A stretch of DNA of 64,000 nucleotides, taken from an uncultured Ponticaulis sp. Lineage in GTDB: Bacteria; Pseudomonadota; Alphaproteobacteria; Caulobacterales; Hyphomonadaceae. Shown piece by piece: positions 38,174-48,206 of this stretch; the stretch's first letter is position 1, and the number at the start of each line of letters is the position of its first letter. The DNA lies in NCBI GenBank assembly GCA_963678615.1, contig OY782947.1, forward strand, positions 2,118,688 to 2,182,687. Direction: 5' to 3'. The position numbers were made by a program, and so were the translations under genes. Under the pieces are notes generated by a model. That model was given only the letters and a program-made list of their open reading frames with translations. It was not told where the DNA came from and did not search any database.

Positions 38174-38638
38174 TCAGAATAACTGCCGCTTATCCGGATG
38201 AGACATGGTTTGCGCCTCGGTATCAGCCAGGTTGATACCAAGGGCAGCTGCACCCGCTTCCAGATAGTCGCCGAGCATCGGCATGCCGGAGAGATAATGC
38301 GCGACATCGCCGTTATCGCGTTCGGCCGCGAGCTTACGGGCCTCGTCCCATTCATCACCGTCAAAGTCACCGCGGCCAATCCAGACCAGCGCGACCAGCG
38401 TTTCCTGCTCTTCCATGCTGAGACCGGCAATGCCTTCCAGAAGGACCTGTTCAGCCGGGTTGTCCGCCTGATCTTCCAGAACGGAAACCTCGCCGTCATC
38501 CATGTCGTTAGAGCCTTCGTCTTCATCGACTTCATCAACGGTCGCGTCGAAAGCGCGTGCTTCGAGAATGATGGCCGCGATTGTATCATCGGAGACACCG
38601 AGGTCTTCAACCTTACGGCCTGTGTCAATGGTTCTCAT
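38174..38638 (-). CDS. DUF3775 domain protein
   Basis: LVALVWIGRGDF...W..A and YL.GMPMLGDYLEAG; acidic. Confidence 0.88.
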   Translation of the reverse strand: MRTIDTGRKVEDLGVSDDTIAAIILEARAFDATVDEVDEDEGSNDMDDGEVSVLEDQADNPAEQVLLEGIAGLSMEEQETLVALVWIGRGDFDGDEWDEARKLAAERDNGDVAHYLSGMPMLGDYLEAGAAALGINLADTEAQTMSHPDKRQLF

Positions 38639-39325: not shown

Positions 39326-39703
39326 TCAACCGTCTCGTTTTGCGCCGAACATATCGCCAAGCGTTGTCAGCGCTCCACGCGCATATTGCGTTAATGTCGG
39401 TGTTTTGCCGCGCGCATGCCGAACGAAGTGAACACAGTTTGAGCCTGTCAGATCATAGTCATGGCCCAGGCGACGCAGCGCACGGTGATGCGCCAGATAT
39501 TCGCTGTCGCCGCTCGTGTTGGGGTGATGCGTGACCTCCCGGCCCTTGGCAAACTCACCAAAGGTTTGAGACACAACACCGCCCTCTTCGCCGTTATTGG
39601 AGAGTATTCGACCACCAAACGTCACCACGCCGTAATGGCGCAACACGCCACCAAAACGGACAGATACAATGTCACCAGGACGCAGATCATCTTTAAAATT
39701 CAT
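39326..39703 (-). CDS. Permuted NlpC/P60 (LRAT-like) protein
   Basis: PGDIV...RHYGV (His) and YDLTGSNCVHFV, resembling the LRAT NCEHF motif (Cys). Start uncertain (39703 or 39775). Confidence 0.65.
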   Translation of the reverse strand: MNFKDDLRPGDIVSVRFGGVLRHYGVVTFGGRILSNNGEEGGVVSQTFGEFAKGREVTHHPNTSGDSEYLAHHRALRRLGHDYDLTGSNCVHFVRHARGKTPTLTQYARGALTTLGDMFGAKRDG

Positions 39704-39854
39704 CGATAAACGATAATTGCATTTGATGTCGTCGTCAATCTCATTTGCAGCGACCCCGGATGACGCCGAAAACACGCAAACTAAAAATGGTTGATATGCA
39801 TTTGCCCCTCTCCTAATCCTGAGACATCAGAGGAAACCGGCACACCGCACTGAC

Positions 39855-40202
39855 ATGTTGTTCGCACTCACCATATCGCGCTTGCGCCTGTGTCTGGCTG
39901 TTTTGCTGACTGCTGTTTATCTGGCTGCGCCAATCGCAGAAGCACGCCATTCTGAGCACACAATCGAACATATCTGTGAAACGGCTATCACTGATGGTGC
40001 TGTAGCGAGTGATAAACTCGATCCACCAGCCGATCATACCCACCACACCCACAATTGTGGCAGTTGCCATATCCATCTTCTGAACGGAGACGCTGTGGTC
40101 GCCACAACTGGCCAACTTGTTTCCAGCTCACCCGGTCCACGACCTGCTGAAGCTGTTCTGAACCGCCCACCTGGGAACCCATACCGCCCTCCTCGCGGCT
40201 GA
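39855..40202 (+). CDS. DUF2946/CruR/CutF-like His-rich upstream ORF with CxxC and C-terminal RPP motifs
   Basis: Signal peptide (..APIAEA|R), 9 His, HNCGSCH, ends RPPGNPYRPPRG*, 65 nt before a TonB receptor. Confidence 0.75.
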   Translation: MLFALTISRLRLCLAVLLTAVYLAAPIAEARHSEHTIEHICETAITDGAVASDKLDPPADHTHHTHNCGSCHIHLLNGDAVVATTGQLVSSSPGPRPAEAVLNRPPGNPYRPPRG

Positions 40203-40260
40203 AACGGACTCCATCGGCACCTGCTCACCAGGCTGCCTTTCTCGTTTCAGTTTAAAGGGC
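40199..40260 (+). promoter_or_regulatory. Alternative RNA structures between the uORF stop and the receptor SD
   Basis: ctgaaacg(40199-206)/cgtttcag(40243-250); inner ggcacctg/cagg-c-tgcc; anti-SD gccttt(40235-240)/aagggc(40255-260). Confidence 0.55.
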
Positions 40261-40267
40261 AATCAAA

Positions 40268-42247
40268 ATGTCAAAGCAGTATTGGAGCAGCGCGGCTGCT
40301 CTCATCCTCTGTGCAATGGGACTTAACTCTATCTATGCGCAGGAAACACATCCACCGGGAGACGATCACGACGATGAAGCCGTGATGCAGAAAGTGGTCA
40401 TCTCAACCACACGATCTGGTCGGCTGGCTCAGGATGAACCAATGAAAGTCGAAGTCATCAACCGGGAGGAAATTGAAGAAAAAGCCATTATGCGTCCCGG
40501 CAATATCGCCACCATGGTGAATGAAACCGGCGGCATTCGGGTGCAGGTCACCTCTCCCGCGCTTGGCGCCGCAAATGTCCGGGTTCAGGGGCTGTTTGGC
40601 CGATACACTCAACTGCTCGCCGACGGTTTACCGCTTTATGGCGGACAGGCCTCTTCTCTCGGATTATTGCAGATTCCACCAACTGATTTGCGCAAGGTGG
40701 ACGTGATCAAAGGCAGCGCATCATCCCTGTACGGGGCGTCCGCTCTGGGTGGAGTGATCAACCTGCTCTCACGCCTGCCGGGCGATGAAGCCGAAGGCGA
40801 AGTTCTGTTCAATGTGACGTCCCGCAATGGTCAGGATATCACGGCCTATTATGCAACCCCGATCAACGACCAGCTTGGCGTCTCGATCACGGGCGGCGCG
40901 CACAAACAGGGTCTGGAAGACTTCGACAATGATGGCTGGATCGACATGCCGTCATATGAACGCTGGACGGCCCGGCCTCGCCTGTTCTGGGACAACCATA
41001 ATGGCGCGAGCATTTACGCTACGCTTGGCTTCATGACCGAAGACCGGACAGGCGGCACCAGAGATGGCGTCGACGCGCCAGATGGTTTGCCTTTCGTTCA
41101 GGCACAGGACACAACCCGCCTTGATGGTGGACTGATTGGTCAAAAAGACCTCAGCCATGCACTGACCGCACAGGTTCGGGCCTCGGCCATGGTGCAGGAT
41201 CACACCCATCAGTTCGGCAGTGTGATCGAAGATGATGAACATCAAAGTTATCTGTTCGAAACGTCTCTGACGGGCGCCTATGACGCGTCAAACTGGGTTC
41301 TGGGCCTCGCCTGGCAATCAGATCGCTATACGTCAGACACCTTTCCAGACTTTGACTACACCTATGATGTGCCGGGTGTGTTTGGGCAATATGATCGCGA
41401 CATTTCCGACGATCTGACCCTGTCACTCAGCGCGCGCCTTGATGACCATAACGTTTTTGGCACGCAATTCAGCCCGCGCGTTTCAGCGCTTTATCGGCCC
41501 GGAAACTGGACGATCAGAGGCTCTCTCGGCAAAGGCTTCTTCGCGCCAACGCCCTTTGTAGAAGAGATTGAAGATGCTGGCCTCTCTCGACTGGACCCGT
41601 TGTCAGGTCTGGTCGAAGAAACGGCGAAAACGGCATCACTGGATGTCGGCTATCAGACAGGAGGCATTGAGACCAATCTCACTTTGTTCGCCTCAGATGT
41701 CGAGCATGTCACCGAACTCGAAGCCTATGCGAGCAGTCCGGGCGGCGTTGAAGACCGCGTCCGCCTCGTCAACACAAGAGGCACAACCCGGATTCGCGGC
41801 GCAGAGCTCTTGCTTCGCTATGTGTGGAATGACTTCAAAATCACGGGAAGCTATCTCTTCATCGACTCAAGTGAGCCAAGTGTTGCCGGCTCACCGAACG
41901 ATGAAATTCCGCTGACACCAAAACACTCAGCCGGCATGGTCGCCATGTGGGAACGCCATGGTGAATTCCGGCTGGGTATGGAGATGTACTATACCGGCGA
42001 GCAGCGCATTGACGACAGCCCGTTCCGGACGCGCAGCGACAGTTTCCTCGATATTGGTCTGTTGGGGGAGATCACAATCGGCCCGGCGAGCTGGTTTATC
42101 AATGCCGAGAACCTGCTCGATGTTCGTCAGACCCGTGAAGAGTCGATTCTGCGCCCGATCCGCACGGCGAGCGGTCGGTGGACGACCGATATCTGGTCAC
42201 GCAATGACGGTTTCATCGTCAATGGCGGCGTGCGTCTGAAATTCTGA
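40268..42247 (+). CDS. TonB-dependent receptor (659 aa), probably metal-related
   Basis: Signal peptide, HPPGDDHDDE, KVVISTTR, VDVIKGSASSLYGASALGGVINL, C-terminal GGVRLKF. Confidence 0.93.
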   Translation: MSKQYWSSAAALILCAMGLNSIYAQETHPPGDDHDDEAVMQKVVISTTRSGRLAQDEPMKVEVINREEIEEKAIMRPGNIATMVNETGGIRVQVTSPALGAANVRVQGLFGRYTQLLADGLPLYGGQASSLGLLQIPPTDLRKVDVIKGSASSLYGASALGGVINLLSRLPGDEAEGEVLFNVTSRNGQDITAYYATPINDQLGVSITGGAHKQGLEDFDNDGWIDMPSYERWTARPRLFWDNHNGASIYATLGFMTEDRTGGTRDGVDAPDGLPFVQAQDTTRLDGGLIGQKDLSHALTAQVRASAMVQDHTHQFGSVIEDDEHQSYLFETSLTGAYDASNWVLGLAWQSDRYTSDTFPDFDYTYDVPGVFGQYDRDISDDLTLSLSARLDDHNVFGTQFSPRVSALYRPGNWTIRGSLGKGFFAPTPFVEEIEDAGLSRLDPLSGLVEETAKTASLDVGYQTGGIETNLTLFASDVEHVTELEAYASSPGGVEDRVRLVNTRGTTRIRGAELLLRYVWNDFKITGSYLFIDSSEPSVAGSPNDEIPLTPKHSAGMVAMWERHGEFRLGMEMYYTGEQRIDDSPFRTRSDSFLDIGLLGEITIGPASWFINAENLLDVRQTREESILRPIRTASGRWTTDIWSRNDGFIVNGGVRLKF

Positions 42248-44304: not shown

Positions 44305-46272
44305 TTATGTATCCAGGAAGCTGCGAAGCTTACGAGACCGGCTCGGATGCTTCAGCTTGCGAAGCGCTTTGGCCTCGATCTGACGGATACGTTCCCGTGT
44401 AACCGAGAATTGCTGACCAACTTCTTCCAGCGTGTGGTCGGTGTTCATACCGATACCAAAACGCATCCGCAGAACACGTTCTTCACGCGGCGTCAGTGAC
44501 GCCAGAACGCGGGTTGTGGTTTCGCGCAGGTTTGACTGGATCGCGGCATCCACCGGCAGAAGGGCTGCTTTATCCTCGATGAAGTCGCCAAGGTTTGAAT
44601 CCTCGTCGTCACCGATTGGTGTTTCGAGAGAGATTGGCTCTTTCGCGATTTTCAGAACCTTACGGATCTTCTCCAGCGGCAGACCGAGCTTTTCTGCCAG
44701 TTCTTCCGGTGTTGGCTCGCGGCCAATCTCGTGAAGCATCTGACGCTGAGTGCGAACGATCTTGTTGATCGTCTCGATCATATGCACCGGAATACGGATC
44801 GTACGGGCCTGGTCTGCGATAGAGCGGGTAATGGCCTGACGGATCCACCAGGTCGCATAGGTCGAGAACTTGTAACCGCGACGGTATTCGAATTTATCAA
44901 CCGCTTTCATCAGGCCGATATTGCCTTCCTGAATGAGATCGAGGAATTGCAGGCCACGGTTGGTATATTTCTTCGCGATGGAAATCACGAGACGCAGGTT
45001 TGCCTCGACCATTTCCTTCTTCGCGATGCGGGCTTCACGCTCGCCTTTCTGAACCGTCTGAACAATGCGGCGGAAATCATCGATCGGAATACCGATTTCC
45101 TGAGCCGTTTCAGAAATGTCGTTACGGAGGATTTCGATTTGCGCATCCTCTTTCTCGACGAAACGTTCCCATTTCTTCGACTTGCCGCGAACGTCTTCCT
45201 GCCAGTCTGGTGCCAGCTCGTGGCCCAGATAAGCTTCAAGGAATTCACGACGCGGAACGCCATGTGAGTCTGCCAGACGCATCAGCTTGCCTTCAAGGCC
45301 CATCAGACGCTTATTGATCGCGTAAAGCTGCTCCACCAGTGCCTCAATACGGGCATTGTTGAGGTGCATCGTCTTCAGGTTTTCGATGATGTTGTTCTGG
45401 ATCGAGTCATAAGAGGACTGATCCTTATCGGTGAGGCCCTTGCCTTCCATGCGGCGGGAAATCAGCGTTTCCTGCAGCTGACGGAATTTGTTGAACTCGC
45501 CGGCAATCTCATCGAGCTTGCTGGTTACGCCGTCACGAAGTTCCGCTTCCATGGCCGACATGGACATGGCTGCGCCTTCGTCATCATCGTCATCTTCTTC
45601 GCGTTTGCGCTCGCCGTCTTCACCCTCTTCAGAGTTTTCAGACTCGTCTTCCTCGTCTTCTTCTTCCTCTTCCTCAGGCTCCGGAGGCGGGTTTTCCGCA
45701 CCATAAGTCGCCTCAAGGTCGATAATGTCACGCAGGAGAACGCGCTCATTCACGAGTTCGTCACGCCAGACCATCATCGCTTCGAAAGTCAGCGGGCTTT
45801 CGCACAGGCCGCGGATCATCGCATCACGACCCGCCTCAATGCGTTTCGCAATCGCGATCTCGCCTTCACGAGAGAGAAGCTCGACCGAGCCCATTTCGCG
45901 CAGATACATGCGAACCGGATCATCGGTTCGGTCAGATCCGCGGGCATTGCCCTTGGTCGTGGTAACGGCTTTTGACCCGGAAACGGTCGCCAGCTCGTTT
46001 TTCTTTTCGGCTTCTTCTTCGCCTTCTTCATCGGAGTCGACGACGGTAATGCCCATCTCAGAGAGTTGGGACATGATATCTTCGATCTGGTCAGGGTTGA
46101 CCTCATCAGACGGCAGAACTTTGTTCAGTTCCTCATGGGTGATGTACCCACGGGTCTTCGCCTTCTTGATGAATTTCTTTACACCTGCATCATTGAGATC
46201 CAGCACAGGACCTTCACCCTCATTGGTTTCAGTCTCATCTTCTGTGGCTGGGTTCGCTGCAGCTTTGCTCAT
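44305..46272 (-). CDS. rpoD: RNA polymerase primary sigma factor
   Basis: [83 protein letters not shown]. Confidence 0.99.
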
Positions 46273-46319
46273 CGACACTCTCTCTCCAGTCGCGGGCCCG
46301 GCACCAACGCCCGCTTGAA

Positions 46320-48206
46320 TTATTTTCGCGCTTTTTTGCGTCTCACCGCGTCATCAAACGCAGAAATCGCATCCCGAAGACCTGATTTTGAATTTTCAGG
46401 CCCATGGTTATTTTCATCACCTCGGGTTAGATCTCTGATCTCCGTCTTCAGTCGCGCCTTCTTTGATACGCAATCAGGCACAATAGCTTGTCCCCCGGCT
46501 TCACTACGAAGCCGTTGCTCGTCCTGGGACAGCTCGTCCACCGCGCAGAACCGCTCTAAGGCACTTAGCCATTCCCGACCCTCCGGAGAATTGGGGTCGA
46601 GCGGGGATACAGCCGGTTGCGTGCGCAGATATTGTAGAGCAGACTTCTTCCCAAGAGTCCGTAGATGGAGTGTCAAGCCCGTTCGGTCAACCTCTTCACC
46701 GTTTTCTAAGAGATCAAATACTGAATCTTTCAGGTCTGCGACCCCCGGATCGGGAAATTTTGCCAGTGCGAGCCGCTCCAAAGACGCCTCCAACAAGGCT
46801 GGCGAATCGATCAAACGCAGCAAAATGCCAAGCCCGCGCAAGTTTCCGGATGGCGTAACAATCGGAGCGGGCGCTGCTGGGCGTCCAGCGGGGCGGAAAT
46901 TCCCCTGACCGGCCCGTCTTAGCTCATAAAGGTGATTTCGCAGTCTTTGATGCAGTTCCCGGCCATAGGCCTTTTTCACCCCATCATGGGAAATCGTCGC
47001 GACCGCATGATCAAGGCGCTGCTCAAACCCTGCCTGACGTTCTGGGGTGTTCAGCGGATGCGCGGCAAGCTCTCTCGACCACAAAAGGTCGACCAAAGGC
47101 CGCGCGCCATCAAGCGCTTCTTTCATGGCATCCTTACCGCGTTCGCGGATCAGATCGTCCGGGTCGAGACCATCTGGAAGCATGGTGAAGAACAAAGACC
47201 GGCCCGGCTCCAGAAACGGTAAAGCGCGATCAATCGCCTTGTACGCCGCGCGTACGCCCGCCTCATCACCGTCAAAACACAGAATAGGCTCGCCGCCGAC
47301 TTTCCAGAGCAGCGAGAGCTGATCTTCGGTCAGCGCCGTTCCGAGCGGCGCAACCGCCCAGCCAAACCCGGCTTCGGTCAGCGCGATGGCGTCCATATAG
47401 CCTTCGCAGACAATCAGCCCTTCGCGATTCTCCATCGCAGCAGCCTCACGGGCACGGCGATAGCGGTAGAGCTGATGGCCCTTATGGAAGAGGTCCGTCT
47501 CAGGTGAGTTCAGGTATTTCGGCTTGGCATCTTTTTCCATCGCCCGGCCGCCAAAAGCGATGACATGGCCCTGCGTATCTTCAATTGGAAACATGACCCG
47601 GCCACGAAACCGGTCATAGGGCTCACGGCCAGTATCAGGCTGAATGATCAAACCGGCGTCCAGCATGTCATCAACACGTGCGCCGCTCGCTTTCAGCTTG
47701 TCCTGAAGATGTCGCCAGCCATCCGGCGCAAAGCCGAGACGATGACGCCCCCAGGCATCTTTCTTCAGTCCGCGACCTTCCAGATAGGCGCGCGCCGCTG
47801 CCCCGTCCGGTCCACGCAGGCTCTCTTCGAAAAAGATGCAGGCTGCTTCCATGACATCCAGAAGCCGGCCTCGGCGAGAGCGCTCCGCCCGGTCTTGCGG
47901 CGTATCCTGAGGCAGTTCCATACCAGCTTCTGCAGCGAGGCGCTCAATCGCCTCTGCAAACGAGGCGCGCTCTGTTTCCTGAATGAAGGAAATGACGTCG
48001 CCAAACTTGCCGGACGAGAAGCATTTGAAGAACTGCTTCTGATCATTGACGTAAAAGCTGGGTGTTTTTTCGGCAGTGAATGGCGACAGGCCGACCCATT
48101 CCTTACCCTTTTTGGTGAGCTTCACCTTGCGGCCAACCACATCTGAAATCCGGATGCGGGATTTCAGTTCATTGATGAAACTGTCATTGAAACGGGTGGT
48201 GGCCAT
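46320..48206 (-). CDS. dnaG: DNA primase
   Basis: [48 protein letters not shown]. Confidence 0.98.

Follow-up and report, generated by a model that had tools for sequence, protein, structure and literature searches.

A DUF2946 leader peptide and a covarying RNA hairpin upstream of a TonB-dependent receptor in Ponticaulis: a probable CutF-type metal sensor

Why should the gene of an outer-membrane TonB-dependent receptor be preceded by a small gene encoding an exported, His- and Cys-rich peptide that ends in Arg-Pro-Pro, and could the first control the second? The question is raised by a locus of an uncultured Ponticaulis sp. (GenBank assembly GCA_963678615.1, contig OY782947.1, positions 2,118,688 to 2,182,687 of the forward strand). 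These 64,000 nucleotides (nt) are called the window here, and coordinates given without a locus number are those of the window. A leader, an upstream open reading frame of 115 amino acids (aa) with an ATG start (39855-40202, plus strand), stops at 40200-40202, which leaves a spacer of 65 nt before the ATG (40268) of the receptor gene (40268-42247, plus strand, 659 aa). An initial annotation, made from the letters alone, had proposed that the leader is an exported co-translational sensor of the CutF/CruR type that acts on the receptor post-transcriptionally, a proposal that our in silico results support. We give a probability of about 0.6 to the reading that the leader is a CutF-type co-translational metal sensor gating the translation of the receptor, on the basis of its membership in a known family, a spacer of fixed length (39 residues) within the peptide, and a covarying hairpin that pairs the Pro and stop codons with the Shine-Dalgarno region of the receptor. 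From these observations, we infer stalling and the role of metal at the leader.

The leader starts with a predicted Sec signal peptide (aa 1-30, 39855-39944, plus strand), identified by eye from R9 and R11, a hydrophobic segment at 12-25 and AEA/R at 28-31; the hydrophobic core, P26 and A28-E29-A30 are conserved in alignments of relatives. The signal is followed by RHSEHTIEH (31-39), by DHTHHTHNCGSCHIH (60-74), whose CxxC is C68-C71, and by the C-terminus RPPGNPYRPPRG, read in a longer form as NRPPGNPYRPPRG, with Y110-R111-P112-P113-R114-G115 as its last residues. Conservation across 48 sequences supports a candidate metal-binding cluster, H61-x-H63-H64-x-H66-x-C68-G-S-C71-H72-I-H74 (40035-40076, plus strand). 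There are two RPP motifs: the first (R104-P105-P106, 40164-40172, plus strand) is an extra, clade-specific Pro-Pro, while the terminal one (R111-P112-P113, 40185-40193, plus strand), two codons before the stop, is the candidate arrest site because of its invariance, its 39-residue spacing from the cluster and its two-residue tail. The translation, the positions of the RPP codons and the 65-nt distance to the receptor all agree with the initial description.

A profile search also bears out the proposed family membership. The leader matches Pfam DUF2946 (PF11162) with 26.6 bits (threshold 23.7, E = 1.1e-5), over residues 12-109 and profile positions 4-101 of 117, as do 39 of 48 members of its subfamily at E<=0.01; the match to NCBIfam CopL is far under the cut-off (E = 0.37). 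By the filters used to define CutF-like proteins (PMC9973294), the leader has the required size (<150 aa), an export signal (by eye), a Cys/His motif, Pro-Pro within the last 15 residues (P112-P113, plus P105-P106) and, as genomic context, a TonB-dependent receptor downstream of the 65-nt spacer. Such proteins have been catalogued before: a set of 5,334 was divided by sequence into 29 clusters, whose motifs contain Cys, His or both, and some of which have been suggested to sense other metals; the commonest downstream neighbours of these proteins are efflux outer-membrane proteins, followed by TonB-dependent proteins (PMC9973294). The leader is thus most likely a member of the known DUF2946/CutF/CruR kind, not a new kind of system. 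The pairing of a DUF2946 leader with a TonB-dependent receptor, initially held to be possibly undescribed, has been published as well (PMC9426467 Fig. 7; PMC9973294 Fig. 6B), so that the novelty of the window pair is weaker than first thought.

The relatives of the leader reveal what is constrained in it. A word-indexed protein search retrieved a single close homologue, and an exhaustive search with HMMER, covering 1.84 billion representative proteins, gave 58 matches at E<=1e-3. Three long matches (P0127, P0132 and P0149) were rejected as repetitive false positives without the motif, leaving 55 small proteins. These share the signature HxHHxHxCGxCH[IVLF]H, an unconserved stretch, (L/P)(F/Y)RPPRx and a stop, which the window leader follows in the form HxHHxHxCGxCH[IV]H, 39 aa, RPPRx and stop. 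Of the 55 representatives, 47 have 39 residues separating the second Cys from the Arg and 54 have 38-40, and exactly two residues follow the Pro-Pro in 52. In the alignment of 48 sequences, H66, C68, C71, R111, P112 and P113 are invariant, and C41, H72, H74 and R114 nearly so; the N-terminal half is rich in indels, whereas the C-terminal spacer is almost free of them although its sequence is free to vary. That only the length is constrained speaks for a nascent-chain ruler between CxxC and RPP and against a folded domain; the leader peptide is expected to be unstructured. This 39-residue ruler, as read from the sequences, would differ from that of CruR and CutF, which is 45 residues long, and goes beyond the literature consulted. 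The doubled form RPPGxxYRPP is found in the window, in three loci of its Ponticaulis-like clade (L037, L053 and L098) and in roughly one in five representatives; the first RPP is missing in Hirschia maritima, and the second alone is universal in the subfamily. The nine His of the window leader, described earlier as unusually many, lie well within the range of the subfamily (7 to 15 among the 55 representatives).

The receptor displays Plug and TonB-barrel domains and a signal peptide (aa 1-24). Its predicted mature N-terminus, QETHPPGDDHDDE (40340-40378, plus strand, from the translation), is rich in His and Asp and precedes the TonB-box region; the stretch HPPGDDHDDE given in the initial annotation is indeed there, but the predicted end is three residues longer. 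No curated NCBIfam equivalog was found: the best listed models are IreA, BtuB and CirA-like, all far under their cut-offs, and TIGR01778 (OprC/NosA-type copper receptors) is not among the best 25 of the 30 NCBIfam matches. Among proteins of solved structure, the best sequence match is the colicin I receptor CirA (E = 1.9e-21).

Scans based on the receptor, with one genome per species, returned about 100 loci. A leader of the same subfamily precedes the orthologous receptor in 26 of them, with divergent DNA, so the uORF-receptor pair is found repeatedly, with the same motifs and spacing; all 26 belong to Hyphomonadaceae, Maricaulales or Parvularculales (Ponticaulis, Henriciella, Hyphomonas, Hirschia, Oceanicaulis, Hyphococcus). 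Counting the window, the CxxC-RPP spacing is 39 in 19 and 38 in eight of the 27 receptor-linked loci, two residues follow the Pro-Pro in 26 of 27 (L049 is the exception), and the distance between leader and receptor is 60-74 nt in 25 of 27, those whose receptor start could be placed. The nearest relatives of the window receptor are from Ponticaulis (77%, 74% and 72% identity); orthologues from Alteromonadales mostly lack such a leader. Every member of the receptor family (L001-L116; for example, L001 2848-3030, L023 and L007) has a low-complexity stretch rich in His, Asp and Glu that follows the signal peptide and precedes the TonB-box region; it reaches about 80 residues in length and is shortest in the window among those seen. 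From its position in the sequence, this stretch would be a periplasmic tail. We found no description of this His-rich receptor subfamily in the literature searched, and no consistent partner gene downstream of the receptor across the loci compared.

A different exported leader, of 124-156 aa, stands before orthologous receptors of Pseudoalteromonas and Psychrosphaera (L009 2431-2805; L011-L018, L022, L024 and L025). It has a Cys-rich block, DDCCEVDCCExxCICPxNAC, and ends in (L/F/Y)RPPIF(T/A)(S/A/H)-stop, for example YRPPIFTS; in L009, the one locus counted by hand, the last Cys is 38 residues before the Arg, nearly the ruler of the window. Pfam does not recognise this leader, and NCBIfam CopL matches it weakly and under the cut-off (E = 5e-4).

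How could such a peptide act on the receptor? The sequence between the two genes offers a candidate device, a three-tier hairpin (40186-40260, plus strand) supported by folding, a covariance model and covariation. The region 40176-40275 folds at -29.5 kcal/mol (z = -3.0 against shuffles). In the outer stem, GCCCU (40186-40190, within the codons of R111 and P112) pairs with AGGGC (40256-40260), the Shine-Dalgarno sequence of the receptor; in the middle stem, GGCUGAAACGGA (40197-40208), which spans the final codon, the UGA stop and a further six bases, pairs with 40240-40252; and the apical tier is a G+C-rich hairpin (40216-40237). Hirschia maritima has the same three tiers with a different sequence (CCUGAAUUUU...AAAAUUCAGG), and the tiers are present in all relatives folded. 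At 30 of 35 loci, at least 3 base pairs are expected between the RPPxx-stop codons and the Shine-Dalgarno window, compared with 1.2 after shuffling, and the stop-codon arm forms a stronger duplex with its own 3' arm (-9.5 kcal/mol) than with those of other loci (-6.1 kcal/mol; permutation p<1e-4). Pro codons serving as anti-Shine-Dalgarno and a stop codon within the stem, features that we read from the sequence, would go beyond what the literature consulted describes.

The hairpin is shared with a second set of loci, in which the same leader subfamily precedes an efflux operon. A covariance model built from eight efflux-linked spacers alone recovers 11 receptor-linked ones, and the iterated model (R2) finds 49 loci, each at the junction between the end of a leader and the start of the next gene, with the window matched at 40185-40270 (27.2 bits, E = 3e-4 in 545 kb). 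In the model alignment (47 distinct sequences), which was fitted to the model and in which many sequences are related, 82% of the cells are paired, compared with 68% in shuffled alignments (0/500) and 20-46% with slid partners; 91 cells are changed on both sides, compared with 29 in shuffles (0/500), and compensatory changes occur at all six pairs of the stop-codon stem. RNAalifold predicted zero pairs on a plain MAFFT alignment of 35 spacers, because the 3' arms are misaligned in it. Rfam had zero matches in 39600-40500, so a riboswitch of the NiCo/czcD type is not the explanation. A consensus scan of the 65-nt spacer detected no promoter-like site from which the receptor could be transcribed independently of the leader, an arrangement that would have spoken against the initial annotation.

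Two efflux-linked loci (L026 4390-4420 and L027 2190-2225) show the apical G+C hairpin followed by a U-run (UUAUUUUAUUCUUUUUU and UUUUUAUU, respectively), resembling an intrinsic terminator inside the hairpin that masks the Shine-Dalgarno sequence; judging from these sequences, transcription attenuation may be layered on translational control there. The corresponding tail in the window spacer is only moderately U-rich. A terminator-like site within the leader (40096-40114) was discarded, since such sites occur at chance level (2 found, 3.0 expected).

Together, the ruler and the hairpin suggest the following mechanism. The leader would be translated and its signal peptide would route the nascent chain to the Sec channel. 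With the ribosome at the terminal Arg-Pro-Pro, 39-40 residues would separate the His/Cys cluster from the peptidyl-transferase centre, which puts the cluster at the tunnel exit or slightly outside it; this position during the pause could explain the fixed length of the spacer. Metal bound to the cluster would lengthen the Pro-Pro pause. A ribosome paused with P113 in the P site would cover about 40179-40206, that is, both 5' arms of the hairpin (the anti-Shine-Dalgarno Arg-Pro codons and the stop-codon stem), so that a longer pause would free the receptor's ribosome-binding site: its Shine-Dalgarno sequence (40256-40260) would become single-stranded and the receptor would be translated. Without the longer pause, termination would let the hairpin re-form and keep the receptor low. 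The same logic of arrest over a hairpin is known from SecM, VemP and MifM and from ApdA and ApdP, exported chains whose arrest holds the ribosome over a hairpin masking the ribosome-binding site for the next gene. Those peptides monitor secretion, not metal, have no sequence relationship with the leader, and carry motifs such as RAGP or RAPP instead of (F/Y)RPPRx.

Two DUF2946 leaders have been studied, and they work with opposite logic. In Bordetella pertussis, CruR (Bp2923) precedes bfrG, which encodes a TonB-dependent transporter; copper at the CxxC of CruR relieves an arrest at the C-terminal RAPP, after which Rho terminates in a 162-nt spacer and the receptor is switched off (PMC9426467). 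In Rhodobacter capsulatus, CutF precedes cutO, which encodes a multicopper oxidase (cutFOG; PMC9973294, PMC8456105, bioRxiv 10.1101/2025.02.05.636593); copper on the CxxxC of CutF prolongs a pause at a Pro-rich C-terminal motif 45 residues off, the oxidase is switched on through a hairpin, and the metal-induced stalling of this type needs Sec export and EF-P (PMC9973294; bioRxiv 10.1101/2025.02.05.636593). The anatomy of the window fits better with CutF than with CruR. With CutF, it shares a DUF2946 leader shorter than 150 aa with a Sec signal (by eye), a Cys-based motif and a Pro-rich, arrest-like C-terminus, as well as a stem-loop between leader and next gene that hides the Shine-Dalgarno sequence and, by the same predicted logic, would be melted by the stalled ribosome. 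It differs from CutF in its His-flanked CxxC at a distance of 39 (CxxxC and 45 in CutF), in its target, which is a Sec-substrate outer-membrane receptor instead of a Tat-substrate multicopper oxidase, and in the metal, probably divalent instead of copper. The anti-Shine-Dalgarno arm made of Arg-Pro-Pro codons and the stop within the stem are described here for the window.

The likeness to CruR extends to DUF2946, CxxC, the C-terminal Arg and Pro-Pro near the stop, an excess of C over G at the 3' end of the leader, and poor translation, as far as CruR is poorly translated and the window leader has no Shine-Dalgarno sequence at a useful distance before its ATG (the nearest GAGG is 21 nt upstream). 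In contrast, the window has YRPP two residues from the end (RAPP three from the end in CruR), a spacing of 39 (45+-2), a 65-nt spacer with a hairpin masking the Shine-Dalgarno sequence (a 162-nt Rho spacer), no PepSY_TM partner gene downstream, and a receptor that is presumably metal-induced, whereas that of CruR is copper-repressed. BfrG-type operons also lack the link to Czc/MerR islands that relatives of the window display. The window locus, therefore, joins a target of the CruR kind with an RNA device of the CutF kind. The rules of its subfamily (a ruler of 39 residues, an RPP placed two codons ahead of the stop, and Pro codons as anti-Shine-Dalgarno) are sharp and testable, and cultured relatives exist (Hirschia maritima DSM 19733 and Ponticaulis koreensis DSM 19734). 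The locus raises the questions of how a metal outside the ribosome could tune a Pro-Pro pause, how the length of a spacer could set the sensing site, and why a TonB-dependent receptor with a His-rich periplasmic tail should be wired like an efflux pump. Since such leaders and hairpins are recognisable from sequence, they should not stay annotated as hypothetical proteins.

Which metal would be sensed, and in which direction? A scan with the leader motif found ten loci of Hyphomonadaceae and Maricaulaceae in which the same leader subfamily and hairpin stand ahead of an efflux operon, which encodes an efflux protein of the outer membrane and an adaptor of the CzcB/NccB type whose N-terminus is His-rich, with a MerR regulator and a divergent CDF transporter upstream. 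The nearest NCBIfam models are IhpA (divalent metal exporter), CzcB/NccB, CadR-PbrR and ZitB. The MerR proteins have Cys at 80, 115 and 123, which we take to be the pattern of divalent-metal sensors. In this position before czcC-like genes, and as small, exported, His/Cys-rich proteins, the sister leaders resemble CzcI, CusD, SilD and CopL, which form clusters of CutF-like proteins (PMC9973294); unlike the window leader, CzcI of C. metallidurans lacks a C-terminal Pro motif (PMC9973294). By analogy with these Czc/CDF/CadR-type loci, the earlier suggestion of a metal other than copper gains contextual support.

A DNA pattern of motifs and spacing, TGYGGN4TGYCAYN3CAY-N108-CGNCCNCC, takes no account of what lies downstream; the loci that it selected from metagenome contigs were followed by an efflux outer-membrane protein in 39 cases and by a receptor of the window's family in seven. 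In a rough tree of the C-terminal 62 residues of the leaders, efflux-linked and receptor-linked sequences are interspersed. At the receptor-linked loci L040-L042, L046 and L055, the CDF transporter is kept, sometimes with the MerR gene or a membrane methyltransferase-like gene, and from this gene order it looks as if the receptor had replaced czcCBA within an otherwise intact island. The H. maritima receptor lies between the CDF-MerR genes and a second leader with a CopA-type multicopper oxidase. This second small, Cys/His-rich exported reading frame (L001 4987-5388) has a Pro-rich C-terminal part and a weak DUF2946 match (E = 0.45), and together with the Tat-signal, Met/His-rich multicopper oxidase that follows (L001 5457-7391) it forms a cutF-cutO-like pair in the same island.

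Efflux pumps need to be switched on by metal. Receptor-linked leaders share the sensor, the ruler, the hairpin and some of the promoters with efflux operons, which suggests that metal prolongs the pause and that the receptors are induced by divalent metal (Zn, Cd, Co or Ni), the opposite of CruR-BfrG. We propose only tentatively, with analogy to the sister loci as the guide, that the receptor would be on when periplasmic divalent metal (Zn/Cd/Co/Ni) is in excess, and that an efflux sensor-hairpin cassette with a 39-residue ruler was repeatedly moved onto His-tailed receptors in marine Hyphomonadaceae, in some genomes behind a CadR/ZntR-like MerR promoter. If so, the receptor family would belong to the response to metal excess, for example with the tail buffering periplasmic metal or the receptor importing a protective or competing ligand, instead of being a scavenging importer. 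That the cassette was exchanged repeatedly between efflux pumps and His-tailed receptors, and that the receptor is induced by metal, are predictions from sequence comparison that go beyond the literature consulted; no metal-induced TonB-dependent receptor was found in the literature searched.

Several points weigh against these interpretations. A metal-induced importer is counter-intuitive, and the MerR-type operator found in relatives is absent upstream of the window leader, so that for the window itself induction by metal is carried over from relatives. The leader has Arg directly before Pro-Pro, without the Ala of the RAPP motif of CruR, and its distance of 39 residues from C71 to R111 departs from the spacing of about 45 (+-2) between Cys and arrest motif in CruR and CutF. 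With the first, efflux-only covariance model, the window hairpin reached 7.8 bits only, and the dependence of the covariation alignment on its model has been mentioned. Moreover, CCU-CCN Pro codons are inherently similar to anti-Shine-Dalgarno sequences, and the outer stem may be partly a by-product of coding; the independent evidence is therefore the stop-codon stem. The sequencing runs looked up for this organism (X1-X4) are all genomic DNA. Finally, a bubble of C over G (40100-40260, plus strand; C 38-45%, G about 21%), a candidate Rho-utilisation region detected with 78-nt windows as in PMC9426467, leaves room for a Rho component.

This bubble speaks for attenuation of the CruR type, in which the ribosome arrested at RPP would shield a C-rich Rho-utilisation site. 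Once metal lifted the arrest, Rho would end transcription in the spacer and the receptor would go off, either by this route alone or in combination with the hairpin. Between about 40100 and 40260, the share of C is 15-23 percentage points above that of G, the kind of signature relied on for bp2923 (PMC9426467), although coding for Pro, Arg and Ala accounts for much of the excess. As for CruR-BfrG, a TonB-dependent receptor is the target, a leader without a good Shine-Dalgarno sequence recalls the poorly translated bp2923, and uptake repressed by metal is the intuitive logic. Nevertheless, we consider this explanation unlikely: the spacer is 65 nt long against 162 and mostly contained in a stable, conserved hairpin, a poor substrate for Rho; the spacing of 39 departs from 45; this leader subfamily and its hairpin are mostly found ahead of efflux operons, which must go on with metal; and metal-activated MerR-type promoters precede several receptor-linked copies.

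The mature peptide of 85 residues could instead be a working periplasmic metal-binding protein, either a CopL/CzcI-like regulator or a chaperone or buffer for the His/Asp-rich N-terminus of the receptor, with the hairpin providing translational coupling for stoichiometry and no regulated stalling. The signal peptide, the conserved His/Cys cluster with its near-invariant C41, and a receptor family with a periplasmic His-rich N-terminal tail agree with this idea, hairpins overlapping a stop codon are a classic coupling device, and CzcI, in the same gene position and without the Pro motif, has been discussed as a regulator (PMC9973294). We regard it as improbable because a folded protein or chaperone would not hold an exact, sequence-free spacer of 39 residues and an invariant RPP two residues from the stop, because CutF is degraded right after export and both CutF and CruR act only in cis (PMC9973294, PMC9426467), and because a leader without a Shine-Dalgarno sequence suggests low output. 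That the leader is a chance or misannotated reading frame, its His, Cys and Pro features being compositional accidents of a 5' untranslated region, as its shortness, its missing Shine-Dalgarno sequence and the single close homologue of the word-indexed search might suggest, is highly improbable and already refuted by conservation, given a Pfam match above threshold, 55 relatives with invariant motifs and a reading frame retained before the orthologous receptor in 26 genomes whose DNA has diverged.

Regarding the genomic setting, the surroundings of the window locus are a housekeeping region (rpoD, 44305-46278; a long open reading frame, 46320-48206) and not a metal island. Divergent from the leader is a gene (39326-39775, minus strand) for a 149-aa LRAT/NlpC-like protein (E = 7.6e-4, below the Pfam threshold), and further upstream lies a very acidic open reading frame of 154 aa (38174-38638, minus strand); nothing evident ties either of them to metal homeostasis. 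Between the divergent genes, the 79-bp intergenic region contains a promoter-like site, TTGATA-17 nt-TAATCC (39791-39819, plus strand), seen by eye and thus weak evidence; the consensus scan missed it because the second hexamer lacks the final T. Its spacing is the ordinary 17 nt, compared with 19 nt in the MerR-type promoters of relatives. No Caulobacter-type Zur box (TGTTAYnnnRTAACA, <=3 mismatches) was found upstream of any receptor-linked leader, so control by Zur is not indicated.

MerR-type promoters, consisting of TTGACC, a 19-nt spacer with the palindrome CTCYAGnnnCTRTAG and TAAnnn, precede the leader in the efflux loci L029-L036 and in the receptor-linked loci L040-42, L044, L047/L001 and L050. 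In L029-L036, they lie about 40 nt upstream of the leader ATG (for example, L036 3961-3995), and the -10 element (TAATTA/TAACTA) ends about 6 nt before that ATG, so the messenger RNA of these leaders may be leaderless or nearly so.

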